64,000 bases of DNA from Dehalococcoidia bacterium (GCA_965225815.1 CBDDBP010000006.1:2956-66955), one strand, 5' to 3'. Positions 982 through 59,378 are shown, numbered from the stretch's first letter. The notes: generated from the sequence alone by a model not told the origin. Numbers and translations are program-made.

Positions 982-1353
982 TTGGCGGCGATGAATCCTG
1001 AGGACGCGACACGGATGGTGGCGGAGGCGATGGAGGCGGGCGATCTCGATGGCGTCGTCGGTCTTTACGAGCCGAATGCCAGCCTGGTGATTGAGCCAGG
1101 CACGACGGTAACGGGCTCAGCAGCGATTCGCGAAGCGATGGCTGACTTCATCGGCTTGAAGCCGAAGCTGACCAGCGAACATCACCTTACGGTGGCGGCG
1201 GACGACCTGGCGTTGGTCTCGACCAACTGGAGCCTTGAGGGGACGGGGCCAGATGGCCAGCCGATGACGATGAGCGCGACGAGCACGGACGTGATGCGAC
1301 GCCAGGCTGACGGGTCGTGGAAGGTAATCATCGACAATCCGTTCGGCGTCTGA
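982..1353 (+). CDS. SnoaL-like / DUF4440 (NTF2-fold) protein
   Basis: 123-aa ORF. TTG start lies 6 nt after AGGAG (971-975). Sequence pattern (DLDGVVGLYEPNASLV...GSWKVIIDNPFG) is typical of the NTF2-like fold. Confidence 0.7.
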   Translation: MAAMNPEDATRMVAEAMEAGDLDGVVGLYEPNASLVIEPGTTVTGSAAIREAMADFIGLKPKLTSEHHLTVAADDLALVSTNWSLEGTGPDGQPMTMSATSTDVMRRQADGSWKVIIDNPFGV

Positions 1354-1417
1354 GTTCGGGCCCCGGCCAGGCGACGTTTCCCTGCAGTCGGTTAGTTCGC
1401 GACGGGGACAGCCGTTG

Positions 1418-2073
1418 CTAGACGGCGGGCTGGTGCTGCGTGAGCTGGATGATGGCTTCCTCGAATTCGTCTGATTTGAAGCCGAAGGGGCCGGGAGCGC
1501 CGCGGTAGGCAATAGTGCCGTCGGCGTCGACGAGATAGAGGCGGTCGGGCTGGGCGTGGTAGGCCTCGTTGACTTCGTTGCTCATCTCCGTCGATCAGGG
1601 TCGGGATGCTGATGTCAATGCCGAGGGTGCAGGCGTGGGCCAGCTCGACGCGATCATCGTAGGTCTTGGGTTGAACGAAGACGATATCCTCCAGGACGTT
1701 GCCCACAGACTGCCACTCGTCTGTTGGATGGGCTTCGCGGATGTAGACGACGTAGAACTCGATGTCGTTGCGGAAGCGTCCGTAAATTTCCTCCAGGTGC
1801 ACGGCCTGGTGACGGAAGGGCGGTCAAGTATAGGAGGCGAAGATCAGTCCGACGGTTTGCCGCGGAGGGCTGAGAGACGGACACGGGCGTCGCCCTCGAG
1901 CGCGGCGAGATCGAAATCGGGCGCGGTGTCGCCGACCTTCGGCGTCGTGGCCTCGCGGCCTCACGCTCCCTGGCGCGGGCCTCCATGGTGCCTTCAGCTT
2001 CAGGAAATGTGGCGATAGCGGAGAGGATTTCGGTTACGAGGCTCTTCTGCTCCGTTTCGGACATCGATTGCAT
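1418..2073 (-). pseudogene. Iodothyronine-deiodinase-like thioredoxin-fold protein with in-frame TGA (Sec candidate) and about 3 frame disruptions
   Basis: Stitching three minus frames gives ...PKVGDTAPDFDLAALEGDARVRLSALRGKP / VGLIFASYT-TGA-PPFRHQAVHLEEIYGRFRNDIEFYVVYIREAHPTDEWQ...IPTLIDG / MSNEVNEAYHAQPDRLYLVDADGTIAYRGAPGPFGF.... The TGA is at 1824-1826. Frame changes lie near 1949-1952, 1854-1855 and 1588-1589. Confidence 0.55.
1793..1809 (-). promoter_or_regulatory. Possible SECIS-like hairpin downstream of UGA
   Basis: mRNA CCAGG-CCGUGCA-CCUGG starts 15 nt 3' of the UGA at 1826-1824. It has a 5-bp stem and a loop containing GU. Confidence 0.3.
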
Positions 2074-2108
2074 CTTCTCGTAGACAAGGTTCTGGTAATG
2101 GTCGAGCG

Positions 2109-3134
2109 TTACTCGCAGAGCTCACGGTGGATGCGCAGCAGGTCCGGGATCGTGGCGGGATCACGTCGGCCGAAGCCGCACTCGGTGGCGATGTCGTAGT
2201 CGGTGATGTACCTGTCGGCGGCATGCATGCGCTTTCGGCCGCCCTCTACGCCGTCGGTGTAGTGGACGAGGCCGAGGATGAGCTTCGTCGTGGAAGGCCG
2301 CTTGAGAGCCTTGAGAGGCTGGAAGTAAGGCTCATCAGAGCGTTCTCGGGGGACCGCCATGTGCACATAGTCGATGTTGCGGTTGGAGCCGGCGGCGATG
2401 CCGTTGGCGAAGGCGACGGAGGTTCCGAGGTCGCGCGGCTCGACGATGTGCTGGTGACCAGGGTCGCCGTAGCAGAGGTGGATACCAAGCTCGACAGCCG
2501 ATTCGACGGCGTTACAGAGGCCGACGACGCGTCGTAAGGAGCCCTCGATGAGGTCTGGATATGGAAGCGAAATGCCGCCATCGGCGCCGACAATCTCATA
2601 GCAGACATCGAACTGGATGCAGAGCTGGTCGGCGGGAATTTCGTCCTGGATGCGCCGTACGTCGCGCAGGATGCCAGCCTCGAGAGCGGGCTCGACATCT
2701 AGCTGAGCAGAGGGTATTACGAATCCGCAGACCAGTGCCACGGGGGTCGGAATCGAGATCTGGAAACGGGTGCCGTCGGCGATGCGCCCTTCGGCGACGA
2801 GGCCCTTGAACACCTCGTAGGACGCGATCGCCTCGGCGGCGTAGCCGAACTCACCGAGATCTATCGACTTCGGGTCTACGCCATCCCTGATTCGGTAGAA
2901 GGGGCGCTGAATGGTGTCGTTGAAGCCAGGTAGCCGGACGTCTTGCAGCTCCATCTCGAGGTCGGGTGATCGGTCGAAGGTCTGCTGCTGCCAGCGGATC
3001 CAGTAGCCTCGGGCGCCGGTTTCGCCGTCTGGGAGTCTGGCGCAGGAGTCGCCAAGGATGTCGGAGACGGTTTCGAAGACGGCGCGTGAGTCGGTGAGGC
3101 CGACGCTGCCGACGAGGTGAGCCTGACGTTTCAT
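2109..3134 (-). CDS. UROD/MetE-like superfamily protein (cobalamin-independent methionine synthase C-terminal-like)
   Basis: 341-aa ORF with AGGAGG upstream of the ATG. Putative Zn-ligand motifs IHLCYGD and ATECGFG resemble MetE-type barrels. Confidence 0.6.
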   Translation of the reverse strand: MKRQAHLVGSVGLTDSRAVFETVSDILGDSCARLPDGETGARGYWIRWQQQTFDRSPDLEMELQDVRLPGFNDTIQRPFYRIRDGVDPKSIDLGEFGYAAEAIASYEVFKGLVAEGRIADGTRFQISIPTPVALVCGFVIPSAQLDVEPALEAGILRDVRRIQDEIPADQLCIQFDVCYEIVGADGGISLPYPDLIEGSLRRVVGLCNAVESAVELGIHLCYGDPGHQHIVEPRDLGTSVAFANGIAAGSNRNIDYVHMAVPRERSDEPYFQPLKALKRPSTTKLILGLVHYTDGVEGGRKRMHAADRYITDYDIATECGFGRRDPATIPDLLRIHRELCE

Positions 3135-4762: not shown

Positions 4763-5340
4763 CTGAAGCCGGGGACACCCCGCACCCCACTGAAGGCGGC
4801 GCCGAGGGCGTCTGGGTATAGGTCACGCCGGGGCGTTGAGGGCTTCGCGACCTGCACCCTTTCCTGGCGGGCGGGCTTGTGCGCTACGCCCTCTATTTAA
4901 CCTAGACCTGAGGGGAGACCCCTCAGACTCCCCCCGCAGGGGCTGCGCCCCTACTGACCCTGCTTGGATCGAGTAACGACAACATTCCAAAGTGAACGAC
5001 GGGGCGTTGAGGGATTTGCGACCTGCGCCCCTCCTGTCGGGCGGGCTTGTGCGCTTCGCCCTCTATTTAACCTAGACCTGAGGGGAGACCCCTCAGACTC
5101 CCCCCGCATGGGCTGCGCTCCCGCCATCCCTGGTGGCGCCGAGTCTGACGGAGTCGGTGGTGGACTTCGTTGGGGCGTTGACGGCTGCACTACCTGCGCC
5201 CCTCCTGCCGGGCGGGCTTGTGCGCTTCGCTTCCATGAGACGGTTCATCCGAAGGGAGATCCCTCGGGCTCCGCGCGCATGGGCCCTTCGGCGGAGCTCA
5301 GGATGCACTTCGCCCACGCTACCCTGCTTCTGATCGCTGA
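4763..5340. repeat. REP-like element cluster: one a-type hairpin plus 3 tandem units of 171 bp
   Basis: The string ggggcgttga starts at 4830, 5001 and 5172, giving a 171-bp period. Each unit carries gggcgggcttgtgcgcttcgcc and a perfect hairpin (ctgaggggagacccctcag at 4908-4926 and 5078-5096; ccgaagggagatccctcgg at 5249-5267). Confidence 0.85.
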
Positions 5341-8473: not shown

Positions 8474-8692
8474 TTAAAGCCGCCGGGGCATAGTTGAAGC
8501 CGGGGATACCCCGGACCCAACTGAAGGCGGCGCCTGGAGCGTGGGGCGTGGGCTTACGCCGGGGCGTTGATGGCGGCGCGTCCTGCAGCGTGGGCGAACT
8601 CTGCAGGTTGAAACCTGCAGCTTCGCTGACATGACGTTGAATACGAGGTGGTGACGGTCCGGCTTGGCGTCGGACTGCGTTGCGGTGTTGGC

Positions 8693-8718
8693 GGACGGAG
8701 CTGAAGCTTCGTCCCTAC
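8693..8718 (-). repeat. REP (GTAG + palindrome) copy 1
   Basis: Top strand reads ggacggagctgaagcttcgtcc+ctac. Minus strand reads GTAG-GGACGAAGCTTCAGCTCCGTCC. Confidence 0.8.
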
Positions 8719-8887
8719 GTTGTCTTTGCTGCGCTCTTCGTCGGGCGGGCTTGTGCGCTTCGCCTCAAATGAAACGATTCATTCCGCGGGTGTCCCCTCG
8801 GGCTCCCCGCGTATGGGCTGCGCCCCCACTACGCCTGCCAGCGTTATTCGAGGTTGGGGCAGCCGTGGACTGCGTTGGGGTGTTGGC

Positions 8888-8913
8888 GGACGGAGCTGAA
8901 GCTTCGTCCCTAC
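8888..8913 (-). repeat. REP copy 2
   Basis: Identical 26-mer to copy 1. Confidence 0.8.
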
Positions 8914-9191
8914 GTTGGCCTTGCTGCGCTCTTCGTGACGGGCGGGCTTGTGCGCTTCGCCTTCTATTCAACGTAGATCTGCGGGGAGACCCCTCAGACT
9001 CCCCCCGCAGGGGGGCTGCACCCCTATCGACCCGCTGAGGTTGGCCTCACTCGGTGTTCTTGCTTGTGAGCTTTTTTTGAGGGTAGGGCAGTTGAGATTC
9101 GGGTGATGCGGAACTGCATGGCAGCCTCGCCACCGTTAAAGGGCTTTGGTCCTTCGCGCGGCTCAGGACGACGAGTTGGGTGTGCTTCGGG

Positions 9192-10181
9192 TTAGAGGGC
9201 TTTGGCGGCGAGGACTTTGACGTCGGCTTCGGGGCGGGCGCCGTAGTGGGAGATGACTTCGGCGGCCATGATGCCGCCGAGCTGGCCGCTGGTGGCGAGG
9301 TCGTGGCCGTGGGTGTAGGCGTAGAGGAAGCCGGCGGCGTAGGCGTCGCCGGCGCCGGTGGTGTCGACGACTTTGACGCCTTTTTCGGCGTCGATGACGT
9401 GCATTTCGTCGCCGTTGACGATGACGGAGCCTTTTTCGCTGCGCGTGAGGGCTGAGATTTCGGCGTGGCCGCGGACGTGCTGCAGGGCCTCGTCGAAGCT
9501 ATCGACCTGGTACAGCGAGAGGATTTCGGTTTCGTTGGCGAAGAGGATGTCGACGTGGTTGTCGATCAGCTCGATGAATTCGTCGCGGAAGCGGTCGACG
9601 CAGAAGGCGTCGGAGGTGGTGAAGGCGACTTTGACGCCGGACTCCTGGGCTTTGATGGCGGCGTTGCGCATGGCCTCTTTGGCGCGCGGCTGGTCCCAGA
9701 GATAGCCTTCGAGGTAGAGGACCTTCGAGCCGGTGATGTAGTCGAGGTTGACGTCGTCCGGCGTGAGCTGCGTGGTGGCGCCGAGGAAGGTCTGCATGGT
9801 GCGCTGGGCGTCCGGCGTGACAAAGATGAGGCAGCGTGCGGTGGAGAGTCCCTCGGTGAGCGGCGCGGTGTCGTAGGTGACGCCGACGGCGCGAATGTCG
9901 TGGGTGAAGACGTCGCCGAGCTGGTCATCGGCGACTTTTCCGATGTAGGCGGTGCGGCCGCCGAGGGCGGCGATGCCGGCGATGGTGTTGGCGGCGGAGC
10001 CGCCGGAGGATTCGACGCCGGGGCCCATGAGCTTGTAGAGGCGTTCGGCGTCGGTGGCGTCGATGAGGGACATGGCGCCCTTGGCGAGGTTGTGCTCGGT
10101 GAGGAGGGCGTCGTTAGCCTGGGCGAGGACGTCGACGATGGCGTTACCGATGGCGGTGACGTCGAAGCGCTTTTGATTCAT
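9192..10181 (-). CDS. PfkB-family carbohydrate/adenosine kinase
   Basis: 329 aa. N-terminal AIGNAIVDV, the GG motif SSGGSAANT and the C-terminal motif DTTGAGDAYAAGFL. Confidence 0.85.
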   Translation of the reverse strand: MNQKRFDVTAIGNAIVDVLAQANDALLTEHNLAKGAMSLIDATDAERLYKLMGPGVESSGGSAANTIAGIAALGGRTAYIGKVADDQLGDVFTHDIRAVGVTYDTAPLTEGLSTARCLIFVTPDAQRTMQTFLGATTQLTPDDVNLDYITGSKVLYLEGYLWDQPRAKEAMRNAAIKAQESGVKVAFTTSDAFCVDRFRDEFIELIDNHVDILFANETEILSLYQVDSFDEALQHVRGHAEISALTRSEKGSVIVNGDEMHVIDAEKGVKVVDTTGAGDAYAAGFLYAYTHGHDLATSGQLGGIMAAEVISHYGARPEADVKVLAAKAL

Positions 10182-10213
10182 GGGATGGGGCCTCGTGTTC
10201 TAGAAGGGTGGGC

Positions 10214-10239
10214 GGACGGAGCTGAAGCTTCGTCCCTAC
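10214..10239 (-). repeat. REP copy 3
   Basis: Same 26-mer as copies 1 and 2. Confidence 0.8.
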
Positions 10240-10270
10240 GGGCGTGTGGGCTCGGGTTTAGATTGTGGCG

Positions 10271-10403
10271 GCGCCTGCTGATGCGATGTCTTGATAACTA
10301 AAGCCGGGGATACCCCGGACCCCACTAAAGACGAGATAACGGCGCGTTGCCGGATCATGGCATGCGATCTAGATCGCAGACGCGCCTGCTGATGCGATGT
10401 CTT
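10271..10403. repeat. a-type hairpin element flanked by a 22-bp exact direct repeat
   Basis: gcgcctgctgatgcgatgtctt occurs at 10271-10292 and 10382-10403. These flank 89 bp containing taaagccggggataccccggaccccac. Confidence 0.8.
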
Positions 10404-10767
10404 CGTCTTCCTGGGAGGTGGCGCCGGATGCGCCGATGGCGCCGATGACGCCGGTGCTGTCGGTGAGGGGGACGGCGCCCTGGCGGGGGACGAAGCGTCG
10501 GCCGCTGAGCTGGTTGGCGATGGCGTGGTAGGCGGGCGAGGCGTCGGCGGCCATCGTTTCGAGCTGGCCGGAGGTGCGGCCGGTGAAGGCGGCGCCGGTG
10601 GCTTTGCCCTCGGCGATGGCGGCGGTGTAGGCGGGGACGTTGCCGAAGCGCTCGAAGAGGACCATGGCGCCGGTGATGTCGACGATGGCGACGCAGACGG
10701 GCTTACCGAGCTTGGTGGCGGCTTCGCCGGCGGCGGCCATCGCTTTCTTTGCGGTGTCTTTGTCCAT
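10369..10767 (-). CDS. GlcG/HbpS-like heme-binding protein (DUF336)
   Basis: Sequence MDKDTAKKAMAAAGEAATKLGKPVCVAIVD...GAIGASGATSQEDEDIA. GAGGAGG lies upstream of the ATG at 10767. Confidence 0.85.
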   Translation of the reverse strand: MDKDTAKKAMAAAGEAATKLGKPVCVAIVDITGAMVLFERFGNVPAYTAAIAEGKATGAAFTGRTSGQLETMAADASPAYHAIANQLSGRRFVPRQGAVPLTDSTGVIGAIGASGATSQEDEDIASAGASAI

Positions 10768-13109: not shown

Positions 13110-13384
13110 CAGCCGCGCTAGCCCGGGGTTAAAGCTTTAGGCGCCTTTCTTCGTGTTGCGGGGAGAGGCGCTTTGTTGGTGGCGGTTGTGGAAGTGAGAC
13201 GGGGCGTTGAAGGCTTCGCGACCTTCGCCCTTCCTGGCGGGCGGGCTTGTGCGCTTCGCGTACTAAGAAGGGATTCATTCCGAGGGGACACCCCTCGGGC
13301 TCCCCGCGCATGGGCTGCGCCCCCGCTACCCCTGCTGGTGTTATTCGAGGGTGGGGCGGTCGTGGACTGGGTTTGGGTGTTGGC

Positions 13385-13410
13385 GGACGGAGCTGAAGCT
13401 TCGTCTCTAC
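13385..13410 (-). repeat. REP copy 4
   Basis: ggacggagctgaagcttcgtct+ctac, with 1 mismatch in the stem. Confidence 0.75.
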
Positions 13411-13582
13411 GTTGGCGTTGCTGCGCTCTTCGTGGCGGGGTGGGGTGGGCGCTTCGCCTACTAAGAAGGGATTCATTCCGAGGGGACACCCCTCGTGCTC
13501 CCCGCGTATGGGCTGCGCCCCCGCTACCCTTGCTGGCGTTATTCGAGGTTGGGGCGGCCGTGGACTGGGTTGGGGTGTTGGC

Positions 13583-13608
13583 GGACGGAGCTGAAGCTTC
13601 GTCTCTAC
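13583..13608 (-). repeat. REP copy 5
   Basis: Same sequence as copy 4. Confidence 0.75.
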
Positions 13609-13829
13609 GTTGGCGTTGCTGCGCTCTTCGTGGCGGGCGGGGTTGTGTTGCGCCTCTTAAGAAGGGATTCATTTCGAAAGGCCTCCTGTCCGGCTGGCCG
13701 GTTTGGCTTCGACGAGAGCTGGGGTCGAAAGCGGAGGAGACAACCAGACGCAGCGTTTTGATCCTTCGCGGGGCTCAGGATGACAGTGAGGGTGGCCGAA
13801 ACCGGATTCTCGATGGGGACAGACGAGGC

Positions 13830-17379: not shown

Positions 17380-18309
17380 ATGAAGGTTGGGTTTATTGGG
17401 CTGGGGACGATGGGCGGAGGGATGTCGATGAACATCCGACACGCCGAGCACGACATGACGGTGTTCGACATCAACAAGGACGCGGCGAAGCGTCAATTGG
17501 ACGCGGGCTGCGATTGGGCGGACTCACCGAGAGTCGTGGCGGAGGCGTCGGAGATCGTGTTCACGTCGTTGCCGGGACCGCCGGAGGTTGAGGCGGTCGC
17601 GCTGGGGCCGGGCGGGCTGCTCGAGGGGATGAAGCCGGGGTCGGTGTGGTGCGACCTGTCGACGAACTCGCCGACGCTGATGCGGCGATTGCACGGCATC
17701 TTCGCCGAGAAGGGGATCCACGTTTTCGATACGCCGGTGAGCGGTGGTCCGGTGGGCGCAAACTCGGGTCGTCTGGCGATCTGGGTCGGCGGTGATGAGG
17801 ACGTGTTCAACGAGCACAAGCACGTGCTGGACGCGATGGGCGACCAGGTGAAGTACATTGGGCCGATCGGCGCGGGATCGATCGCGAAGCTGGTGCACAA
17901 CTGCGCCGGATACGCGGTTCAGGCGGCGCTGGCGGAGGTGTTCACGATGGGCGTGAAGGCCGGCGTGGAGCCCCTATCGCTGTGGGACGCGATCCGGCAG
18001 GGCGCCGGCGGGCGACGCCGCACCTTCGACAGCCTTTCGGGCCCATTCATGCAGAACAAGTTCGACCCGCCTTCTTTCCAGCTGCGACTGGCGCATAAGG
18101 ACGTGAAGCTGGCGACCGAGCTGGCGAAAGAGGTGGGCGTGCCGATGCGTCTGTCGAACATGGCGCTTGAAGAGATGACGGAGGCGATGAACCGGGGCTG
18201 GGGCGGCCGCGATTCACGGGTGGCGATGGTGCTGCAGAAGGAGCGCGCCGGCGTGGAAATCGAGGTCTCGGAGGAAGCGATTCAGGCGCTACTGGCGGAG
18301 AATCCTTAA
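17380..18309 (+). CDS. NAD(P)-dependent 3-hydroxyisobutyrate/6-phosphogluconate dehydrogenase-like oxidoreductase
   Basis: MKVGFIGLGTMGGGMS Rossmann motif. 309 aa. Confidence 0.9.
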   Translation: MKVGFIGLGTMGGGMSMNIRHAEHDMTVFDINKDAAKRQLDAGCDWADSPRVVAEASEIVFTSLPGPPEVEAVALGPGGLLEGMKPGSVWCDLSTNSPTLMRRLHGIFAEKGIHVFDTPVSGGPVGANSGRLAIWVGGDEDVFNEHKHVLDAMGDQVKYIGPIGAGSIAKLVHNCAGYAVQAALAEVFTMGVKAGVEPLSLWDAIRQGAGGRRRTFDSLSGPFMQNKFDPPSFQLRLAHKDVKLATELAKEVGVPMRLSNMALEEMTEAMNRGWGGRDSRVAMVLQKERAGVEIEVSEEAIQALLAENP

Positions 18310-18575
18310 AGCCGGGGCTGGATAACTAAAGCCGGGGCTCTGCCCCGAGACCCCACTAAAAGGCGGCGCCAGGGGCGTTTGGCGTGGCTGGATAAGTAAA
18401 GCCGGGGCTCTGCCCCGAGACCCGACTGAAGGCGGCGTTTAAGGCGTCGGGCGTAGCTGGATAAGTAAAGCCGGGGCTCTGCCCCGTGACCCCACTGAAG
18501 GCGGCGTCTAAGGTGTCGGGCGTAGCTGGATAAGTAAAGCCGGGGCTTGGCCTCGAGAACCTGAGGTGAGCGACG
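18307..18575 (+). repeat. Tandem repeat, 69-70 bp period, about 3.5 units of an a-type hairpin element
   Basis: taaagccgggg starts at 18307, 18327, 18397, 18466 and 18535. The first TAA is the stop codon of the upstream gene. Confidence 0.9.
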
Positions 18576-20851: not shown

Positions 20852-21388
20852 ATGACTGCGAACTGGAACGACGTGCCGGCAGCGATGCCGAAGGACCCGG
20901 ATTATGCGATGCCGCCGCGGGACGACGGCCGCCAGGGGCCGTATTTCATGGCTGAGGTGACGCTACAGGAAGACCATCTCAAGACGGGAACCGTGGGTGG
21001 TTTCGCGGTGCGTTGTGACGAAGGCGCGCGGTTGGGCGGCACGGACACGGCGCCGTCGCCCCTCAGCTACTTCACGATCGCCGTCGGGTTTTGACTGGCG
21101 ACGCAGCTCGTGCAGGTTGCACGGGGTCTAAAAATCGAATTTCGCAACGTGAATATCAAGGTTCACGGTCTGTTCTCTCGGGAAGGCTCCGTCTTGGGCG
21201 GCGACATTGAGTCCTTCGCGGATTCGCTCACGACGGAGCTGTCGTTGGACAGTGACGAGCCGCCGGAGCGAGTGACGCAGTTGGTGAAGCTGGCCGAGGC
21301 GAGCTGCTACACGATGGCGGCGCTTCGCAAGCCGACGCCGGTAGAGCTGCAGGTTACGGTGAACGGCGAGCGCTTCGAACTGGAGTAG
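20852..21388 (+). CDS. OsmC/Ohr-family peroxiredoxin-like protein with in-frame UGA (candidate selenoprotein)
   Basis: ORFs 20852..21094 and 21110..21388 share a frame. The TGA at 21092-21094 occupies the first conserved Cys position (SPLSYFTIAVGF-U-LATQLV). The second conserved Cys is present (AEASCYTMAAL). Confidence 0.7.
21107..21125 (+). promoter_or_regulatory. SECIS-like stem-loop
   Basis: CUCGUGCA-GGU-UGCACGGG has an 8-bp stem including one G-U pair. It starts 15 nt after the UGA and has a GGU apex. Confidence 0.5.
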
Positions 21389-26930: not shown

Positions 26931-27012
26931 TAAAGCCGGGGGAACCCCGGACCCCCCTGAAGGCGGCGCCGAGTGCGTTGGGCGTGGCTTCGCGGGGCGT
27001 TTGGTGCGTTGC

Positions 27013-27038
27013 GGACGGAGCTGAAGCTTCGTCCCTAC
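27013..27038 (-). repeat. REP copy 7
   Basis: Consensus 26-mer. Confidence 0.8.
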
Positions 27039-27119
27039 GAGGCGGTTTTGCCTCGCGTGACGTTCCCGGAGGCGGTGGCGGACTGCGGTGGGGTTGTAGT
27101 TGGGCGTTTGGTGCGTTGC

Positions 27120-27145
27120 GGACGGAGCTGAAGCTTCGTCCCTAC
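27120..27145 (-). repeat. REP copy 8
   Basis: Consensus 26-mer. Confidence 0.8.
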
Positions 27146-27310
27146 GAGGTGCTCGTGCCTCGCGTGGCGTTCCCGAAGGCGGTGGCGGGAGTCGTGGCGA
27201 GGATGCGCACATGCGGCTGACGCTGCGGTATGGTTGGGGTCGACCTCGTGTCGAAGAGCGTCCTGGGAAGATTGATAACCGGGGCTCGGCGCAGGATGGA
27301 GGATGCAGGC

Positions 27311-32086: not shown

Positions 32087-33367
32087 ATGCTGAGCGAACG
32101 CGAAAACGACCTTATCACGCACATTGGCGCTGGGACGCCGATGGGCGAGCTGTACCGGCGGTTCTGGCTGCCCGTGCTGGTGGCGGACGAGCTGCCGACG
32201 CCGGACTGCACGCCGGTGCGGATGACGGTGCTGGGCGAGCGGCTGGTGGCGTTCCGGGACACGGAAGGGCGCGTCGGGGTGTTGGACGAGCGTTGTCCGC
32301 ATCGCATGGCGAGCCTGTTCTGGGGCCGAAACGAGGAAGGCGGGCTGCGCTGCGCCTATCACGGCTGGAAGTATGACGTGGAGGGGCGCTGCCTTGACGT
32401 GCCGAACACGCCGGAGGGGGAGAGCTTTCGCGAGAAAGTGGAGCCGTTCGCGGTGTATCCGGCGGTTGAGATGGGCGGGCTGATCTGGGCCTACATGGGG
32501 CCGCCGGAGCAGAAGCCGGAGGTGCCGGACTACGAACTGAACGCGGTGCCGGCGGCGAACCGTTACATCTCGAAGATATTCATCAACGGGAACTGGATGC
32601 AGGGGCTTGAGGGCGACATCGATTCGAGCCACGTGAGCTTCCTGCACGGCCGAGCCGACAGTGCCGTCGCCGATCTGGCGAAGATGGGCCGGATGAACGC
32701 GACGATGTTCCAGGACAAGGCGCCACGATGGTCGTTCAAGGAGACCGGCTACGGGATCATGCTGGCGGCCCAGCGCACCGGCCCGGCCGACACGCTGTAC
32801 TGGCGGGTTAACCAGTGGCTGATGCCTTCATTCACGATGATCGCGGCAAAGCCTGGGACGCCGATCCATTTCCAGGTACGGGTTCCGGTGGATGACGAGC
32901 ACCAGATCTACTATCGGATCATCTGGCACCCGGAGCGGGCGTTGACGGAGTCGGAGCTGTACGCGGCGAAAGAGTCTGGCGTGAACTTTCCGGAGATCAT
33001 TCCGGGGACGTTCTATCCGCGAGAGAATCGGGAGAACAACTTCCTGATCGACCGGGCGCTGCAGAAGAGCGGCACTTCGTTCACGGGGATCAAGTCGATC
33101 CCGGCGCAGGACTGGGCGATGCAGGAGGACCAGGGCGGGCCGATTACGAATCGCTCGATGGAGCATCTGGTGAGCGCGGACGGCGCGATTATCCAGGTGC
33201 GGCAGCGTTTGCTGAAGGCGCTGCGTGAGCTTCAGGAAGGCAGCGAGCCGTTGGAGCCGGCGGTGGTCGGTGAGGACGGCCGGGTGCGGCCGATCGACAT
33301 CGAGCTGGCGAGCGACGTGGACGTTTGGGACGGCGCGGCAGATTACCTGTACGCGAAGACCTGGTAA
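32087..33367 (+). CDS. Rieske [2Fe-2S] oxygenase alpha subunit (phthalate-family, alpha-only type)
   Basis: Rieske motif CPHRMASLFWGRNEEGGLRCAYHGWKY. Mononuclear Fe motif NWMQGLEGDIDSSHVSFLH. Confidence 0.9.
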   Translation: MLSERENDLITHIGAGTPMGELYRRFWLPVLVADELPTPDCTPVRMTVLGERLVAFRDTEGRVGVLDERCPHRMASLFWGRNEEGGLRCAYHGWKYDVEGRCLDVPNTPEGESFREKVEPFAVYPAVEMGGLIWAYMGPPEQKPEVPDYELNAVPAANRYISKIFINGNWMQGLEGDIDSSHVSFLHGRADSAVADLAKMGRMNATMFQDKAPRWSFKETGYGIMLAAQRTGPADTLYWRVNQWLMPSFTMIAAKPGTPIHFQVRVPVDDEHQIYYRIIWHPERALTESELYAAKESGVNFPEIIPGTFYPRENRENNFLIDRALQKSGTSFTGIKSIPAQDWAMQEDQGGPITNRSMEHLVSADGAIIQVRQRLLKALRELQEGSEPLEPAVVGEDGRVRPIDIELASDVDVWDGAADYLYAKTW

Positions 33368-35896: not shown

Positions 35897-37738
35897 TCAA
35901 TTATCGACTGGTTGGCGTCCCAGGTGAAGGTTGTCGCGTTGCTGTTGAGGGTGCGCGAGGGACGCGAACGTCGTCGTCAGCGGGGTGGGTAGGCGGGCGA
36001 GGGGCGAGGAGACGTCGCGGAAGGTGGCGTCGAGGGAGGTTATGACCTCGACGACGGCGGGTTTGCCGACCTCGACGACGGCGGGTTTGCCAGGCGAGGG
36101 CTTTGTTGACGGTTTGGGTGATGTCGGCGGGGTCTTCGACGCGGAAGGCTTCGCAGCCCATGGCGCGCGTGATCGCGCTGTAGTCGAAGGCGTGGAAGCT
36201 TGAGGCGATGGGGCGGTCGCCCTGGCCGTGGCGCACCCAGCCGAGGGCCGAGTTGTTCAAGACGACGGTGACGATGTTGATACCCTCCTCGATGGCGGTG
36301 AGGAGGCCGTTCAGGGCGATGGCGAAGCCGCCGTCGCCGCAGACGGCGATGACGCCGCGATCGGGGTGAACCAGCTTGGCGGCGAGCGCGGCGGGGACGG
36401 CGTAGCCCATGCCGCCGACGGCGGCGGGCTGGAGGTACTCCATGCTGCCGCGGGTCTGGAAGTGATGCATCATGAACAGCCGATTCTCGCCGGCGTCGCA
36501 GGTGATGATGCAGTCGTCCGGCGCGGCCTTGCCGAGGTCGGCGATGAGGCGCTGGGGCAGGATGGGCCGGGCGGCGGATTCGGACTCAGGGACGTGGAAG
36601 GAAGCTAACTTACGGTGGGCTTCTGTCACTTCCAGGGGTCCGTTGACGCGGCCGGGGAGCTCTGCCTGACGGACGGCGTCGACGAGCTGACCGAGGATTG
36701 CTGTCGCATCGCCGATGAGGGTGTGCTGCACCGGAAAGGACCAGCCGGCGTGGCGCGGCTCGACGTCGATTTGGAGGAAGACCTGTCGCTCGGGGTCGAG
36801 CAGGGCCGGGTTCTCGTTGGCGGTGTCGGTGGGGCCGAGCTTGGTGCCGACGGCGAGGATGAGGTCGGCGTCGGCGATGGTTGCGTTGGCGGCTTCGAGG
36901 CCGAAGTTGCCGAAGACACCGAGGGCAAGGGGATGATTCTCCGGGAAGGTGGCTTTGCCAGATGCCGTGGTGGCGACGGGCGTGCCGAGGAGCTCGGCGA
37001 GCTCGAGCAGTTGCGATTGGGCGGCGCTCATACGGACGCCGTTGCCGGCGACGATAACGGGCTTCGAGGCTCGGGCCAGGGCTTGGACCGCATCTGAGAT
37101 GTCGCCGGGGTCGGCGGTTTCGCGCTGCGAGGGGAGGTAGTGCTCCGTGGCGTAGAGGCGGGGCGTCGTGTCGGGGCCTACGGTGGCCGAGAGTGCAGCG
37201 CTGTGGAAGAGAAGTGCTACGGGGGGCCGGGTTGTCCCGTGGTGGCGTGCTTGAGGGCGAGCTGAGTGCTCTGGACGGCGGAAGCGGCGTCGCGGGCGAC
37301 GAAGACCTCCTTGGTGTAACCACGAATCGTGTCGCGGGCGTCCCAGCTACCGAAGTCGCCGGTGCCAGACTGATAGGGGCCGTGCTGGGTGAAGGGGTGG
37401 CCGTCGCTGAGGTCGGCGATGACGAGCATTGGGCTGCCGGCGAGATAGGCCTCGACGATGCCCATGCCGGAGTTGGTCAGCATGAAGGCGGCCTGACCCA
37501 TGGCGACGGCAGGGCGTCCGGTGAGGCGGCCGTGGGCGTCGGCCATGACGGCGGCGAGACCCTCTTCGCGGGCGAGGACGGTTCGGATGGTCGAGCGGCG
37601 GTCGTAGAGGGCGTCGTAGATCGGGATCGTGCGGCCGCCGGGCATGCCGAAGACGAAATTGACGCCGGCCTCTTCGAGGACCTGGACGATGGCCTGGGGG
37701 ACGGAGACGGTTGCAGTGAGAAGGCGTCTGGCGGTCAT
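35897..37738 (-). pseudogene. Thiamine-diphosphate enzyme (acetolactate synthase/benzoylformate decarboxylase-like), frame-disrupted
   Basis: The N-terminal domain (37217..37738) ends at a G6 run (37221-37226). The middle and PP domains continue in another frame (GDGGFAIALNGL). There is a second frame break at 36089-36093, and a 24-bp tandem duplication at 36044-36091. Confidence 0.6.
35903..36039. repeat. Diverged direct repeat, copy I
   Basis: See copy II. On the minus strand it encodes SLDATFRDVSSPLA and the YD fragment SRTLNSNATTFTWDANQSI. Confidence 0.75.
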
Positions 37739-37832: not shown

Positions 37833-39506
37833 CTAGAAGTGATGGGCGTAGCTGCCATCGATGACGACGTCGACGAGGGCGGGGCCTTTGTGGTCGAGGG
37901 CGCGCTTGAGGGCAGGGGCGAGGTCGGCTGGGTTATCGACGCGGTCGGCGGGAATGTCCCAGACGCCGGCCTGCTTCGCGAGGTTGATGACGGGTTCGCC
38001 GAAGTTCATGCCGAGGAAGCCGCTCTTGCGCTCGCTGGCGCCGAGGTAGCGCACCATGCCCTGCTTGAGGATACGGTAGCTGGCGTTGTTGAAGACGACG
38101 TAGGTGACATCGATGTTGTACTTGGCGGCGGTCCAGAGGCCCTGGATGCTGTACATGCTGTCGCCCTCGCGGAGGAGGCCGACGACGGGGCGGTCGGGCA
38201 GGGCCAGCTTGACGCCGAGGGTGCCGGGCAGGGGGAAGCCCAACGAGGCGTTGCCGTCGAAGAAGGAGTTGGGCTGGGTGAGCTCCATGAGCTGGGCGAA
38301 GGGGGCGCGGCCGGAGGTTCCGCCGGCGCCGACGAAGGCGGTATCGGCGGGCACGGCGTCGCGGACCTCGGCCATGAGGCGCATGGGGCTGATGGGGGTG
38401 TTGTCCCACTCCGCTTTGAGTTGTTCTTCCGCCTTCTGACGCATTTCGATGTTCGACTGCGTGATCACGGTGGCGCGCTGCTGGCAGTTGGTGCGCTGAG
38501 CCGGCGTGAGGGCGCGGTCGAGGGCTTCACGGACGTCGCGGGCGGCCCAGGCAGTGTCGGCGAGGACGCTCATGGTGACGGCGTAGTTCTTGGCGAGCTC
38601 CCAGGTATCGACGTCGACCTGGATGAATACGGAGTCGTCGGCGACGGGGCTGCCGCCTTCGTAGAACAACGGCATGAAGGGATTGCTGGTGCCGAAGGCG
38701 AGGACAACGTCGTGACTGGCGAGGGACTCCTTGGCGCCACCGAGGAAGCCGAGCGGGCCAACGTAAAGCGGGTGGTTGGTGGGGAAGTTCCACTGGCGAC
38801 TGGCGGTCTGAGAGACGGCGCAGCCGGCGAGCTCGGCGAGGGCAGCGACGTCGGCGGCGGCGGAGGAGAGCGCCATGTTGTCGCCGCAAAGGATGATCGG
38901 GTTCTCGGCTTCAGCGAGGTAGCGGGCGATGCGAGCGGCGGCGGAGGGATCGGGGCGGCTGGACCAATCGGTGTGGACGGTGGGCGTGATCGGCTCATCG
39001 ACCTCGCCATCGAGGACGTCCTGGGGGAGGCTGAGAACGACGGGGCCCTGCGGCGGCTCGGCGGCGACCTTGAAGGCGCGGCGCATGAGCATGGGGATGT
39101 CCTCGGCGCGGTGGGCTTCGCCAACCCACTTGGTCCAGGGCTCGGCGAAGCGGACGAGATCGGCGTAGAGCAGAGGCTCGGTGGCGGTGTAGCGGGTATC
39201 CTGCTGGCCGACGGTGACGACGAGGGGGGAGCCGTTCTTGCGGGCATTGTAGATCATGCTCATCGCGTTGGCGAGACCGGGGGCGATGTGGACGTTGACG
39301 ACGGCGGGCTTGTGGGTGGCGCGGGCGTAGCCGTCGGCCATGGCGAGAGGGACGGTCTCGTGCAGGCCGAGGACGTATTCGAGCTCGGGGTAGTCCTGCA
39401 GGCCGTCCATGAAGGCGAGCTCGGTGGAGCCCGGGTTGCCGAAGACGTACTTCGTGCCTTCGGCCAGGAGTTGCTGCATTACGGCGTGTTTGCCCAGGAC
39501 TGCCAT
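37833..39506 (-). CDS. Thiamine-diphosphate-dependent enzyme (benzoylformate decarboxylase/ALS large subunit-like)
   Basis: 557 aa, intact. Motifs FGNPGSTE and REGDSMYSIQGLWTAAKYNIDVTYVVFNN. Confidence 0.9.
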   Translation of the reverse strand: MAVLGKHAVMQQLLAEGTKYVFGNPGSTELAFMDGLQDYPELEYVLGLHETVPLAMADGYARATHKPAVVNVHIAPGLANAMSMIYNARKNGSPLVVTVGQQDTRYTATEPLLYADLVRFAEPWTKWVGEAHRAEDIPMLMRRAFKVAAEPPQGPVVLSLPQDVLDGEVDEPITPTVHTDWSSRPDPSAAARIARYLAEAENPIILCGDNMALSSAAADVAALAELAGCAVSQTASRQWNFPTNHPLYVGPLGFLGGAKESLASHDVVLAFGTSNPFMPLFYEGGSPVADDSVFIQVDVDTWELAKNYAVTMSVLADTAWAARDVREALDRALTPAQRTNCQQRATVITQSNIEMRQKAEEQLKAEWDNTPISPMRLMAEVRDAVPADTAFVGAGGTSGRAPFAQLMELTQPNSFFDGNASLGFPLPGTLGVKLALPDRPVVGLLREGDSMYSIQGLWTAAKYNIDVTYVVFNNASYRILKQGMVRYLGASERKSGFLGMNFGEPVINLAKQAGVWDIPADRVDNPADLAPALKRALDHKGPALVDVVIDGSYAHHF

Positions 39507-39554: not shown

Positions 39555-39710
39555 GCGGGTTGGTGGACTTCGTTGGATCGTCGACGCCTTCGCGTCCGGC
39601 GGTCTTCCTATCGGGCGACCTTGTTCGCTTCGTCTCGATAACCATCCAGTTCGAGGGGACACCCCTCGAGCTCCCCGCGCATGGGCTGCGCCCCCGCTAC
39701 CCGGCTGACG
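39555..39710. repeat. c-type REP-like unit
   Basis: ggtggacttcgttgg...tcgaggggacacccctcga (39651-39669)...ccccgcgcatgggctgcgcccccgctacc, matching the units at 13260-13340. Confidence 0.8.
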
Positions 39711-43639: not shown

Positions 43640-44977
43640 CTAGTCCCCGACTGACGGAATGGCGCCCACGGGCCCGTCCGTGGGCACCTGCGTCGTGCGC
43701 GCGGCGTGCCAGTCGGCCAGGGCTTCGTGCCAGACGACTTCGGCCGGCAGGACGGTAGAGCAGGAGCGGCGCCGGTAGGCTGTCGGGTCTTGAGAGCCGG
43801 GAGGAGGCGTACCGGCCTCGCGGAGCGCTCTGGCGGCGCGGATCAGCTTGCGCCGGGTCATGATGATCATCGTGTCGGTCGTGCCGAGATGCTCCTTATG
43901 CCTGGGGTTGATGGCGCCCATGCCGACGGTCATCGCCACGTCCTGGAGGCGGATGGTGGGGATGCCGGTGAAGTTCATCGTGCGCTGAACCTCGCGGTCC
44001 ATGAGGTAGTCGTTGGCGTCGTCGGCGACGGGCCACCAGTCGGGGAAGGGCTTGCCGCCCTGGGCGGGCTTCATGGGCCCCATGCCGTGCTCCTCGGGGA
44101 GCTTGCGGACGTTCTGGTTGAGGACACGGGGGCCGTCGAAGGCTTTCGTGGGGTGCCAGCGCAGGCCCCAGTGCATCGTGGTGTGGTCGTCGATTGGGGT
44201 GTACATGTGCTGGGGTACGGTGCCGTCCGGGGAGCCCGGGAACATGGTGAATACGGGAAAGAGGTACTGCGTCGTACGCCAGTAGGTGCGGCTGGGACCG
44301 TCCTTACGGCTGGCGCCGTAGTAGATGCCGTAGTCGGTGTCGATGATGTCGAGGTGGGGCGCCTTGTCGGGGTGGTAGACGCCGTAGATGTCGGGCTGAT
44401 CGGCCTCGAGGCGGGCGTGGAGGAGGAAGAGGTGGGAGGTGTCGATGTCACCTTCGAGGGCCTGCATCCAGTTGCATTCATAGATGCCCTTGTACTGGTG
44501 GTGGCGCTGCTCTTCGGGGACGTCGCACCATTCAAAACGGGGTAGGCCAGGAGGAGCGGCCTGGTCGGGACCCATGTAGGCCCAGATGATGCCACCTTGC
44601 TCGGCGGCGGCGTAGGCATTGGCCCTGACCTTGGTCTTGAAATTGCTCTCGGCGGGTTCGGAGGGCATGTCGACGCAGGCGCCGGAGACGTCGTACTTCC
44701 AGCCGTGGTAGACGCAGCGCAGGCCTTCTTCCTCATTGCGGCCGAAGAAGAGCGAGGCGCCGCGGTGGGGGCAGGCTTCGGTAATGAGGCCGACCTCGCC
44801 ACTGGAGGTACGGTAGGCGATCATGTTTTCGCCGAGGAGCCGGACGCGCTGAGGCGGGCCGTCATTCTCGAGCTCCCAGCCGTAGAGGAGGGGCAGCCAG
44901 TAGCGACGCATGAGGTCGCCCATGGGCGTGCCAGGTCCGACGCGGCTAAGGGTTTGGTTGTCTTGGATAGAGAGCAT
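43640..44977 (-). CDS. Rieske [2Fe-2S] oxygenase alpha subunit
   Basis: Motifs CPHRGASLFFGRNEEEGLRCVYHGWKY and CNWMQALEGDIDTSHLFLLH. Confidence 0.9.
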   Translation of the reverse strand: MLSIQDNQTLSRVGPGTPMGDLMRRYWLPLLYGWELENDGPPQRVRLLGENMIAYRTSSGEVGLITEACPHRGASLFFGRNEEEGLRCVYHGWKYDVSGACVDMPSEPAESNFKTKVRANAYAAAEQGGIIWAYMGPDQAAPPGLPRFEWCDVPEEQRHHQYKGIYECNWMQALEGDIDTSHLFLLHARLEADQPDIYGVYHPDKAPHLDIIDTDYGIYYGASRKDGPSRTYWRTTQYLFPVFTMFPGSPDGTVPQHMYTPIDDHTTMHWGLRWHPTKAFDGPRVLNQNVRKLPEEHGMGPMKPAQGGKPFPDWWPVADDANDYLMDREVQRTMNFTGIPTIRLQDVAMTVGMGAINPRHKEHLGTTDTMIIMTRRKLIRAARALREAGTPPPGSQDPTAYRRRSCSTVLPAEVVWHEALADWHAARTTQVPTDGPVGAIPSVGD

Positions 44978-46887: not shown

Positions 46888-48258
46888 CTACGAGATGACC
46901 GGCTCGAAGAGCTCTTCGGGCTGGTGCTCGATGAAGGCTGCCTGGAGGCTTTCGGTGGCCTTACGCCAGTCAACGGACCGAGGCAGGATGACGCCACCAG
47001 AGCGGTAGTGGTAGATCGTCGGGTCGTCGACGCCGGGCGGCAGCGTGCCGTTGTCGGCCAGCGCTTTCGCTGCCTTGATGAGGCAGCGGCGGGTGCGTAT
47101 GACCATCGCGTCGCTGGTGCCGAGGTGCTCGGCGGTACGTTCGGAGATGGTACCCATGCTCTCGGTGATGGCCTGGTCCTGAGTGTGAATGCCGGCGATT
47201 CCGGTGTAACTGGTGCTGTTGCTCTGAGCCTCGCGGTCGATCTGGTAGTCGTTCGCGCGGTTCTGAGTGAGGTGGAACTTGCCGGTCCAGTGGGACTCGT
47301 CCGGCAGGTACTGGAAGCCGGGCCGCTGACGCACGGGATTTGAGGCGTCGGCGCCCTTCTTCGCGGCTTCGGCGTCGCCCTGGCCGGCGCTGGCGTTATT
47401 GAAGGCGAGCGTGCTGGGCACGGCGAAGCTCCAGAACATCATGTGGTCGTCGTCGATCGGGACCCAGGCGCGAACCAGGATCTGCTGACCGAGCAATCCG
47501 GTGGGGATCATGGTGTAGAAGGGGAAGAGGAAGTGGGCGACGCGCCAGTAGTAGGTGTCCGCTTCGGCGGGCCGGTAGGTGCCGTAGGAGGTACCGAACT
47601 CGGTGTCGACTACGTCATAGCGGGGCGCCTTGTCGGCGATAGTGTAGTAGTCGAAGGACTTGGGCCTGGCTTTCTCGAGCGTGTTTGCTCCGAGGTGGAG
47701 GAAGGCGAGGTGGCTGGTGTCGATGTCGCCTTCGAGACCCTGGACCCAGTTGCAGTCGCGCAGGGCCTTTTCTACCTGGATGCCCTTCTCAGGAACCATG
47801 TTGGGCTCGATGTCCGGCAGCGGCGGCAGGTCGTTTCGGCTGCGGGTGCCCATGTAGGCCCAGACGACGCCATTGCGCTCGTGGGTGGGGTAGGCGTGGG
47901 CGCGAACCTTGCCCTTGAAGTTGGACTCGGCGGGTTCGGACGGCATGTCGACACAGTCGCCCGCGACGTCGTACTTCCAGCCGTGGTAGACGCAGCGCAG
48001 GCCTTCCTCTTCGTTGCGGCCGAAGAAGAGAGACGCGCCACGGTGGGGGCAGGCATCCGCTACGAGGCCAACGTCGCCGCTGGTGGTGCGGAAGCCTATG
48101 AGATTTTCGCTGAGGATTCGGACGCGCTGAGGAGGAGAGTCGGGGGCTGCCAGCTCGCTGGACATGAAAACGGGAATCCAGTATTGGCGAATGACGTCGC
48201 CCATGGGCGTCCCGGGTCCGACGCGGCAGAGAATGTCATTGTCTTGCTTGCTTAACAT
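46888..48258 (-). CDS. Rieske [2Fe-2S] oxygenase alpha subunit
   Basis: Motifs CPHRGASLFFGRNEEEGLRCVYHGWKY and CNWVQGLEGDIDTSHLAFLH. The second ATG (48258) is preceded by GGAGG. Confidence 0.9.
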   Translation of the reverse strand: MLSKQDNDILCRVGPGTPMGDVIRQYWIPVFMSSELAAPDSPPQRVRILSENLIGFRTTSGDVGLVADACPHRGASLFFGRNEEEGLRCVYHGWKYDVAGDCVDMPSEPAESNFKGKVRAHAYPTHERNGVVWAYMGTRSRNDLPPLPDIEPNMVPEKGIQVEKALRDCNWVQGLEGDIDTSHLAFLHLGANTLEKARPKSFDYYTIADKAPRYDVVDTEFGTSYGTYRPAEADTYYWRVAHFLFPFYTMIPTGLLGQQILVRAWVPIDDDHMMFWSFAVPSTLAFNNASAGQGDAEAAKKGADASNPVRQRPGFQYLPDESHWTGKFHLTQNRANDYQIDREAQSNSTSYTGIAGIHTQDQAITESMGTISERTAEHLGTSDAMVIRTRRCLIKAAKALADNGTLPPGVDDPTIYHYRSGGVILPRSVDWRKATESLQAAFIEHQPEELFEPVIS

Positions 48259-48423
48259 TCCGACCTCCATACGATTGGCTTCACATTGGCATAGATTCTA
48301 CTGCAATTGGCGGCAGGTTGCTTAGTCAACTTAAGGGATCGAAGGGATTACTGGGCGCGAACCGGACTCGGCTTGAGTCCTATAATCCTGTAACACAGTT
48401 AGCGCAGCGGTAGGAGGGGTCTC

Positions 48424-56672: not shown

Positions 56673-56687
56673 GTAGGAGCTTTCCAT
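54801..56687 (-). CDS. ABC transporter substrate-binding protein, family 5 (peptide/opine/nickel type), Tat signal plus lipobox
   Basis: RVSRRRALKVGGATAAAAAFLAACGG followed by an SBP_bac_5-like body. 628 aa. Confidence 0.9.
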   Translation of the reverse strand: MESSYWNKTLSNRVSRRRALKVGGATAAAAAFLAACGGDDDDGGTTGGTTGGGSTGGGATASGLLTTIEDTYSQAVRGGELVDFMTAEPRSTDPVNPQANLNTLIGETMNTLLTEVPGHLEASAYALTGAVAESWEATPDQITFKIRPGAKWHNIDPVNGREVDSEDVLWSLGHHQELAPLSPLVWNATSGGGFAGTPTAPDSMTVVVPLSEPLAYAANWFASFGSVTGQMLMYPKEAGGAYDPRQAVIGTGPFFVSQHENSVDFTVTRNPEYWDQDHALIDSIHLPILPEYATRNAQLEAGAVHYARDNTNIARATDILTLKKDRPDLLLRQQETRPAASVMTFGTQGENVPYFDERVRRAISMSFDRDLSIDVTYNSEEFAAAGLPVESYHNSHLAYRDSFFGGGFWLDPQSSEFGENAKNLQFNPDEAKKLLTAAGYPDGFEVKFGYPNAPQFDRGNVVEPFFFYLQQIGLTVIDNGYEDYTQGYIPLDRDASGVFEGMGYHSVTGGITSTISPISALVAEHHPASGVTFHGYSEGGGTGKTGDPVVIEILNKAKFETDTNAARELAIEAQRHLAGKMWSLNEPGTASAFALAWPAVKNLGVWNSAAVVWRKYQIWLDKTQKPFA

Positions 56688-56743
56688 ACGTCTAGAACCC
56701 CTTTGGTTGATTGTTTTCCAGGCCCTAGCCTGGACTCTACGTG

Positions 56744-56773
56744 ATTATGACCAGATTTGAAGTCTTATGGCTA
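56744..56773 (-). promoter_or_regulatory. Candidate promoter of SBP-1
   Basis: Minus strand reads TAGCCA-18 nt-CATAAT. Both hexamers and the spacing are conserved upstream of SBP-2. Confidence 0.35.
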
Positions 56774-57043
56774 GTCCAGTAAGTGTTGCCGGAGGACAGT
56801 GCGTCATCCTGGCGATTGGAGCCTCCTTCCGTCCCGTTCGTTTGAGAGGCGATCGACCTCACTCTTATTACGGTCGTGGGGCCTATTTCGATCTACAAGA
56901 AGCGTGGTTTTCGGAGACGGCAGGTCAGCCACCGAGATGGGTAACGCGTGGAACAGAAATCGCCGGATCTGGTGAGTTTTGTTCTAGCACTGCCGTTGTA
57001 TCGGGCCAGTCCTAGAACGTTCCACGTAGCTGATTGACAAGAA

Positions 57044-59013: not shown

Positions 59014-59069
59014 GTATACAGCACCCCTTCGGTTGCTTGCTCTTCAGGTCCTCGCCTGGATTTTGCGTG

Positions 59070-59099
59070 ATTATGACCTGTTTTGTAGCCTTTTGGCTA
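59070..59099 (-). promoter_or_regulatory. Candidate promoter of SBP-2
   Basis: Minus strand reads TAGCCA-18 nt-CATAAT. Confidence 0.35.
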
Positions 59100-59378
59100 G
59101 TCTAAATTTAATGCTGGAGGACCGTACCTCCTCCTGGCGTCTCAAAGCCTCCTTCCGCCCCTATCAATTCAGAGGAGATCGAGTTCATTCTTATTACGGT
59201 CTAGGAGGCCATTTCGATCTATGGGAGGCGCGGTTTTCGGCGACGCCAAGCCAGTTGTTAGCCGCGATGGAGTATTCAAGAGGAACCAGTGGAGCATTGC
59301 TCGCCCGATGTGGAGAGTTCGTTTTAGGACTGCGTTGCCCCCGAGCCATCTCAAGTCACTCGCGGGGTGAATTCACAG

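Follow-up and report, generated by a model that had tools for sequence, protein, structure and literature searches.

Results

The deiodinase-like remnant

The window, which is the whole 64-kb stretch of DNA analyzed here, carries on its minus strand a gene remnant (2106 to 1418) that can be read as one protein only with three frame switches (Table 1). In three-frame translation of this strand, the first segment (frame from 2109) reads ...YQNLVYEKMQSMSETEQ...EREAA and corresponds to the N-terminal helical part, ...YQNLVYEKMQSMSETEQKSLVTEILSAIATFPEAEGTMEARAREREAA. The second segment (frame from 2110) reads TTPKVGDTAPDFDLAALEGDARVRLSALRGKP, and the third (frame from 2108) reads VGLIFASYT, the TGA, and then PPFRHQAVHLEEIYGRFRNDIEFYVVYIREAHPTDEW...IPTLID. 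The fourth segment returns to the frame from 2110 with MSNEVNEAYHAQPDRLYLVDADGTIAYRGAPGPFGF...QPAV, its peptide being MSNEVNEAYHAQPDRLYLVDADGTIAYRGAPGPFGFKSDEFEEAIIQLTQHQPAV, and ends at the stop codon. A preliminary description made from the window alone had placed the N- and C-terminal parts in other frames, and the peptides that it quoted were recovered by this translation.

When the four segments were joined and Cys was placed at the TGA, the stitched protein matched the PF00837 (T4_deiodinase) profile at 88.5 bits (E = 5.5e-25; cut-off, 27 bits), with the match spanning profile positions 74-230 of 237. The best match among solved structures was the mouse Dio3 catalytic domain (4TR3, E = 7.3e-21), in an alignment that covers residues 48-204 of the stitched protein. 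Weaker matches to AhpC/TSA (PF00578, E = 2.8e-10) and Redoxin (PF08534, E = 3.4e-07) fell in the same region. Judged from these scores, the likeness of the stitched protein to the deiodinase family is far above chance, in agreement with the first assignment of the locus as a deiodinase-like redoxin.

In the alignment to 4TR3, ASYT-[TGA]-PPF of the window lies opposite GSCT-C-PPF, i.e. the Sec170Cys active site, and in a second alignment (A1) the TGA lies opposite the Cys of the Cys-form homologue P0016. The TGA had been proposed to occupy the Sec/Cys position, with an offset from the catalytic residue as the case that would speak against it; neither alignment contains such an offset. After the second beta-strand, VYIREAHPTDEW of the window lies opposite IYIEEAHPSDGW of Dio3, which is the E-A-H-P-x-D-x-W block, and alignment A1 shows no variation at residues E136, A137, H138, and W143.

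Table 1. Positions of the deiodinase-like remnant, its lesions and signals, and the OsmC-like gene in the window
Feature	Position	Strand	Basis or remark
Probable deiodinase-like selenoprotein pseudogene, whole remnant (parts: four frame segments, TGA codon, SECIS-like hairpin, and stop codon at 1420-1418)	1418..2106	-	Three-frame translation, PF00837, orthologue alignments
Junction of ~108-nt deletion	2106..2108	-	Alignments to L001 and L086
Frame disruption 1: CC versus CCC in L086, 1-nt deletion	1957..1958	-	Orthologue alignments
Frame disruption 2: CC versus CCC/CCA, 1-nt deletion	1854..1855	-	Pro codon of RGKPVG
GCC (Ala) for the otherwise invariant Gly of FGS[YF]T-U-PPF	1836..1838	-	83-copy comparison
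TGA, catalytic Sec position in (F)ASYT-U-PPF	1824..1826	-	P0016 and 4TR3 alignments
Hairpin CCAGG(1809-1805)-CCGUGCA-CCUGG(1797-1793)	1793..1809	-	Starts 15 nt after UGA
Frame disruption 3: GG versus G, 1-nt insertion	1588..1589	-	Between ...TLID and (E)MSNEV...
OsmC-like gene with in-frame TGA (21092-21094), motif U-L-A-T	20852..21388	+	PF02566, E = 5.5e-12

Syntenic orthologues and lesions of the window copy

A protein search returned 717 homologues. The closest fragment, P0001, sits on a 3.2-Mb circular Dehalococcoidia MAG (OZ240228.1), and the gene order common to this genome and the window is an MFS gene (420 aa), an 80-aa gene, a 341-aa gene, and then the gene under study. The orthologue in the OZ240228.1 genome is 240 codons long and lies in one frame with TGA as the sole interruption; it reads MINVDELIKGVPTEYQNRVYEKMQSMSE...GLIFGSYT, the TGA, and then PPFRHQAVRLEE...QPAV. 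Both syntenic orthologues from related Dehalococcoidia, L001/L002/L003 and L086, read straight through except at the TGA. The neighborhood of L086, ion channel and hydrolase genes included, is nearer to that of the window than is the neighborhood in the P0001 genome. The preliminary description had proposed that related orthologues be compared for U versus C at this site, and the same in-frame TGA was found in L001/L003 and L086.

The lesions of the window copy were placed by nucleotide alignment of the window to L001 and L086, and the one-base gap at 1957-1958 was found in the L001 alignment as well as in that of L086. Of the sites suggested beforehand, 1854-1855 and 1588-1589 were recovered exactly; the remaining switch had been put at 1949-1952, a few bases off the position given by the orthologues (1957-1958), because this site is not resolvable without a reference. 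All three lesions stand in number, and the alignments added a fourth that had been missed, a 5' deletion of ~108 nt. Lost with it are the orthologous ATG and the rest of the first ~12 codons (MINVDELIKGVP), as well as the intergenic region, so that the remnant abuts the stop codon (2111-2109) of the upstream 341-aa gene and picks up at orthologue residue ~13. With three disruptions and the orthologous start gone, the remnant has no uninterrupted frame with a start codon, and it was therefore filed as a probable pseudogene of the family and not as a working member.

Downstream, the gap between the deiodinase-like gene and a SnoaL-like gene is 64 nt in the window (1354-1417) and ~2 kb in L001 (6385-8391), where it holds two ORFs (83 and 184 aa); L086 instead has MetE-like ORFs. 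This downstream flank appears to be rearranged among the relatives.

Recurrence of the lesions in independent assemblies and runs

The preliminary description left two alternatives for the frame switches, a decaying selenoprotein gene and a gene that is intact in the organism and was damaged by homopolymer errors. Under the second alternative, the switches would be artifacts of long-read data, introduced at homopolymers or during assembly. It draws on the location of all three indels in short one-base runs (CC, CC, and GG) and on contig names (ctg..._6x_l, for example), from which the source would seem to be a metagenome assembled from long reads. The one-base runs at the indels are just 2 bases long, however, and the same three indels and the ~108-nt deletion are present in L082, L083, and L084, each of which comes from its own ENA assembly. 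Over 1300-2200, L083 does not differ from the window, L084 differs by one base in the neighboring gene, and L082 differs by one base inside the remnant. The exact 341-aa neighbor of the window was found in three separate ENA assemblies (contigs of 137 kb, 513 kb, and 3.49 Mb) and also in one Logan assembly.

Public runs of several studies, under several host labels, contain the indels too when assembled from k-mers. An index search found the stretch in >20 public runs, the labels of which name eight organisms and eight studies, and Logan assembled contigs of 11 public runs were placed on the window. Seven runs (X1, X3, X4, X6, X7, X8, and X12) span all three indel sites without a gap across the whole 1 kb; depths in the gapless runs reach 64-85x, and the matching runs come from at least 6 studies. 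Run X14 covers sites 1957-1958 and 1588-1589, and X16 and X20 cover 1588-1589 only. All independent contigs that span 1957-1958 have the window state at this site, and the three indels, for which a check against raw reads had been proposed at the outset, were found in assembled contigs of independent runs and assemblies, with the proviso that Logan contigs drop rare variants, so that a minority intact allele in the population could go unseen. In X14, the window-identical contig has the extra G at 1588-1589, and a divergent (87%) relative in the same run is without it. X10 likewise matches without a gap, but among the matches listed for it, 1844-1855 is seen only in contigs of relatives. A single synonymous G>A at 1836 (+ strand) occurs in X8 and likewise in X10. 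In raw reads of the Illumina Hi-C run X23, coverage of the locus was zero at the sampled depth.

The flanking sequence has no sign of the errors that the second alternative would need. The adjacent upstream neighbors of 341, 80, and 420 aa keep the lengths that they have in L001/L002, there are no frame errors in the flanking genes (including neighbors of 1-1.3 kb), five neighbors are 79-92% identical in protein to the relative, and the rest of the window is tightly filled with long ORFs of normal codon bias. A high general indel rate of the assembly was ruled out by the intact neighboring genes together with the agreeing independent assemblies. Moreover, a 108-nt deletion, a Gly>Ala replacement, and excess divergence are not error signatures. 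Based on the agreeing assemblies and runs, the 2-base runs, the intact flanks, and the packed window, the homopolymer-error explanation was rejected, and we consider an intact gene behind these switches very improbable. The lesions common to independent contigs and runs, at positions intact in the orthologues, instead point to the decaying selenoprotein gene.

As a separate observation on the distribution of this DNA, near-identical sequence to window positions 1300-2300 was present among runs X1-X20, with 94-98% of sampled words found in 13 runs. With eight organisms named in the labels and eight studies as sources, these runs suggest that the bacterium is widespread and probably lives in association with a host.

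The catalytic TGA across the family

TGA occupies the catalytic codon in 83/83 copies from the best 79 genome loci. These 79 loci belong to Dehalococcoidia/SAR202, other Chloroflexota, Binatia, Myxococcota, delta- and alphaproteobacteria, and one Burkholderiales bacterium. Many of the public proteins (P0001-P0120) are fragments of 120-135 aa that begin after the UGA; they start just past this codon because gene callers stop at the Sec codon. Two full-length JGI entries, P0005 and P0009, have Trp at the site, and both are TGA translated under genetic code 4 (L089 and L090).

These data bear on the idea that the TGA of the window never encoded Sec and is a fifth inactivating mutation (TGC/TGT>TGA) in a redoxin gene of the Cys type. 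Cys does occur at this position in more distant members (P0016 and others, FGSYTCPPF), and a 2008 ocean survey counted 22 Sec and 21 Cys sequences in the family (PMC2398784). Against this origin, the frame is open except for the TGA in the two syntenic orthologues and in every close paralogue, the codon is TGA in every one of the 83 copies across several phyla, the entries with Trp that were checked are TGA read with another code, and a covarying hairpin follows the TGA. We therefore give next to no credence to a Cys-type ancestor and treat the TGA as an inherited, putative Sec codon.

A search for conserved gene neighbors across the 79 loci (tblastn with the neighbors of the window copy, and flanking-ORF clustering) found none beyond the closest relative, and genomic context therefore gives no clue to function.

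The SECIS-like hairpin

The preliminary description had noticed a CCAGG-CCGUGCA-CCUGG hairpin 15 nt past the TGA; it was found at that place, and it proved to be conserved and covarying in the family. In the intact orthologues, the structure is a 6-bp stem, CCAGGC/GCCUGG, with loop CGUGC, 15 nt past the UGA. For a covariation test, we used an ungapped alignment of 25 distinct sequences of one structural class. In this alignment, 92.7% of the cells are paired; shifting the 3' partner by 1-3 columns lowers this to 23-52%. Both sides change at 3/6 stem pairs, with a GC<->UG exchange at one of them, and a CG<->AU exchange at one pair is found in nine alphaproteobacterial sequences, in which the 3' change gives a synonymous Leu codon. 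In other clades, the hairpin occurs in a slightly different register.

The window is the sole sequence that breaks the closing C-G pair, by a G>A change at 1798 that also replaces Arg with His. The predicted hairpin energy is -7.0 kcal/mol in the window and -10.7 kcal/mol in the intact form, so that the broken pair costs 3.7 kcal/mol. The window hairpin still forms a stem-loop soon after the UGA with a G in the apical loop, which are the features of a bacterial SECIS; an Rfam scan of the 64-kb window gave no match at all, and hence none to a curated SECIS model. The overlap with conserved coding sequence inflates conservation but yields no compensatory pairs. The hairpin is read as the putative SECIS element of the family, partly eroded in the window.

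Decay beyond the frameshifts

At the active-site residue that precedes S[YF]T, Gly is found in 83/83 copies from the best 79 genome loci, and Ala (FASYT) is found in the window alone. With three paralogous copies as an outgroup, the window has 26 replacements of its own, compared with 6 for L001 (binomial p = 5e-4), a count that could be partly inflated by gene conversion of L001 with its own paralogues. The other intact orthologue, L086, gives the same picture, and gene conversion in L001 therefore does not explain it: the identity to paralogue L004b is 69.6% for the window and ~79.5% for both intact orthologues, and the intact orthologues are 86% identical to each other, compared with 79-82% for the window to either. 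The MFS gene, by contrast, puts the window nearest to L086. By these comparisons, constraint appears to be relaxed on the window copy, with amino-acid change faster than in the intact orthologues. The 79-82% identity to the orthologues is within the range of the neighboring genes, and the inactivation may thus be fairly recent. In L082 (ena:ERZ25071132 ctg815622), the sole difference from the window in 900 nt is TGA>TGG, at window position 1824.

This pattern of change also weighs on the proposal of ongoing expression, in which ribosomes would make programmed frameshifts (twice by -1 and once by +1) and insert Sec, or in which the fragments would function separately. Such expression would account for the retention of the TGA and a weakened hairpin and for the fact that all four segments are open in their own frames. 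A slippery heptamer is, however, absent at every junction when the sequence is read by eye, intact orthologues are read without any shift, the deletion has removed the start codon along with the upstream region, the invariant active-site Gly is lost, the Sec codon has become TGG in the strain variant L082, and the replacement rate is accelerated in the window copy. In addition, we know of no gene of ~690 nt with three programmed shifts. Programmed frameshifting was discarded on the lack of slippery sites, the shift-free orthologues, and the deleted start, and continued expression of any of these kinds has in our estimate a negligible chance of being correct. From the lesions described above, we infer that no product is made from the remnant.

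Selenocysteine use and paralogues

The preliminary description had reported a second gene in the window with UGA at a Cys position, in an OsmC-like protein, and this gene was found (Table 1). Open frames of 80 and 97 codons lie on either side of its TGA in one frame, followed, 15 nt past the TGA, by the start of an 8-bp hairpin that has GGU as its loop. The OsmC-like gene looks like an intact selenoprotein gene, which suggests that this genome still uses selenocysteine. Its product (UxxT) has a fold unrelated to that of the deiodinase-like protein and is the product of an unrelated gene; it appears intact, in contrast to the broken deiodinase-like copy. Within the window, a tRNA scan of the 64 kb found no tRNA and hence no tRNA-Sec, Pfam scans of 50 ORFs and the OsmC-like gene found no SelA, SelB, or SelD domain, and tblastn found no deiodinase-like paralogue.

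In related Dehalococcoidia, two intact deiodinase-like Sec genes lie in tandem at another locus (L004, 4097-5726; L091/L092, 2665-4153). A third copy in L004 (~9870-10574) no longer follows the family beyond ...EAHPTE (~150 residues) and stops prematurely, being frameshifted or rearranged. The copies in related genomes comprise one by itself at the syntenic position, the two in tandem, and additional truncated ones. A separate contig in runs X1, X3, and X6, which also contain the genome of the window, branches off at 1854-1855 of the remnant, and its 30-nt continuation past the aligned part is an exact match to the paralogue of the related genomes. In this Dehalococcoidia clade, the family exists in multiple copies, and these are turning over.

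Discussion

The locus is very probably a fixed pseudogene that derives, in an uncultured member of the Dehalococcoidia (Chloroflexota), from a gene for a bacterial deiodinase-like selenoprotein. Intact members of the family are thioredoxin-fold proteins of ~240 aa with a catalytic Sec, specified by the UGA in FGSYT-U-PPF; recoding of this UGA presumably relies on a small SECIS hairpin within the coding sequence, the start of which lies 13-18 nt downstream. In the lineage of the window, the syntenic copy would have been inactivated by the ~108-nt deletion, two 1-nt deletions, and one 1-nt insertion. The Gly->Ala change, the broken closing pair of the SECIS, the excess replacements, and, in one strain, TGA>TGG would then represent drift since inactivation. 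Loss of the copy would have been tolerated because related genomes carry further intact paralogues, as this genome probably does too. What is seen is most probably the loss of a redundant copy in a lineage still using selenocysteine. There is nothing new here in mechanism or family; it is ordinary gene decay in a known multi-copy family. Because the disruptions are genuine, the locus should be annotated as a pseudogene, with no "repair" of its frame.

Deiodinase-like and OsmC-like (UxxT) selenoproteins were both introduced in 2005 with the Sargasso Sea selenoproteome by Zhang, Fomenko and Gladyshev, who suggested a redox role for the bacterial deiodinase-like proteins, since one would not expect thyroid hormones in bacteria or as substrates of the bacterial homologues (PMC1088965). 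Later reviews list the deiodinase-like family with the motif UxxC (PMC9312934, PMC13188914), whereas the clade of the window has U-P-P-F, as do animal deiodinases. With the bacterial deiodinase-like selenoproteins, which come from marine and other environmental bacteria and have a presumed redox function, the window copy shares the PF00837 domain, the catalytic UGA, and a downstream SECIS with a G in the apical loop; it differs from the working members in its lost start, three frameshifts, Gly>Ala change, and weakened SECIS. A literature search joining Dehalococcoidia, selenocysteine, and sponge found nothing.

The features shared with animal deiodinases (Dio3, 4TR3/4TR4; Dio2, 9H48) are the thioredoxin-fold core, FGSxT-U-PPF, and the YI.EAHP.D.W block. 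Animal deiodinases use a SECIS in the 3'-UTR, whereas the hairpin of the window lies inside the coding sequence just after the UGA; an animal-type membrane anchor is not evident in the window protein, and the identity is only moderate. In AhpC/TSA and Redoxin proteins, the active residue is likewise at the N terminus of the first helix. The deiodinase model nevertheless outscores the AhpC/TSA-Redoxin type (88.5 versus 40.6 bits), and the window motif is T-U-P-P-F, in contrast to the peroxiredoxin motif PxxxTxxC.

As for the role of the intact family, we infer a Sec-dependent redox or dehalogenating enzyme. A more specific and rather improbable proposal is that the family is a set of putative, fast-turnover Sec-dependent reductive dehalogenases acting on halogenated phenolic metabolites of a host or the environment, with the pseudogene as a snapshot of copy loss. 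The proposal was made because near-identical sequence occurs under many organism labels and because there are several copies per related genome, all with Sec.

The survey of the family has a practical side, in that fragment entries and code-4 Trp translations, which are systematic in public protein sets, hide a family that is Sec-encoded in all 83 copies checked. Furthermore, a probable pseudogene that keeps its UGA and most of its SECIS beside intact orthologues is a small natural control for the speed at which recoding signals decay after translation has ceased.

Other features of the window

A thiamine-pyrophosphate enzyme appears to be split over two ORFs in different frames on the minus strand (35901-37031 and 37217-37738), with the N domain in one and the M and C domains in the other. 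It adjoins an intact 557-aa paralogue (37833-39506), and one copy of a duplicated gene may here have become a second pseudogene. Further pseudogenes were suspected in gaps of the ORF map, and this was set aside, as most of the gaps examined hold intergenic repeat families. These are short (45-200 nt), GC-rich families with palindromic cores and 3-9 copies each, almost all in intergenic ORF-map gaps (4766-5300, 8497-9045, 13187-13676, 18290-18566, 26933-27156, and 39561-39702), and they look like REP or MITE-like elements.

Three genes for family-5 solute-binding proteins lie in tandem (54801-56776 and 59435-61410 on the minus strand, and 57094-59102). The first two of these share long stretches of 100% identity, pointing to duplication or gene conversion in the very recent past, and the third copy (57094-59102) is 75-88% identical. 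The window also contains four genes for Rieske/LigXa-type oxygenases (32087-33367, 43640-44977, 46888-48270, and 61535-62977), accompanied by an HpaB-like hydroxylase, an amidohydrolase_2, an FAA hydrolase, and several SDR genes, and the region is rich in genes with a predicted role in the breakdown of aromatic compounds.
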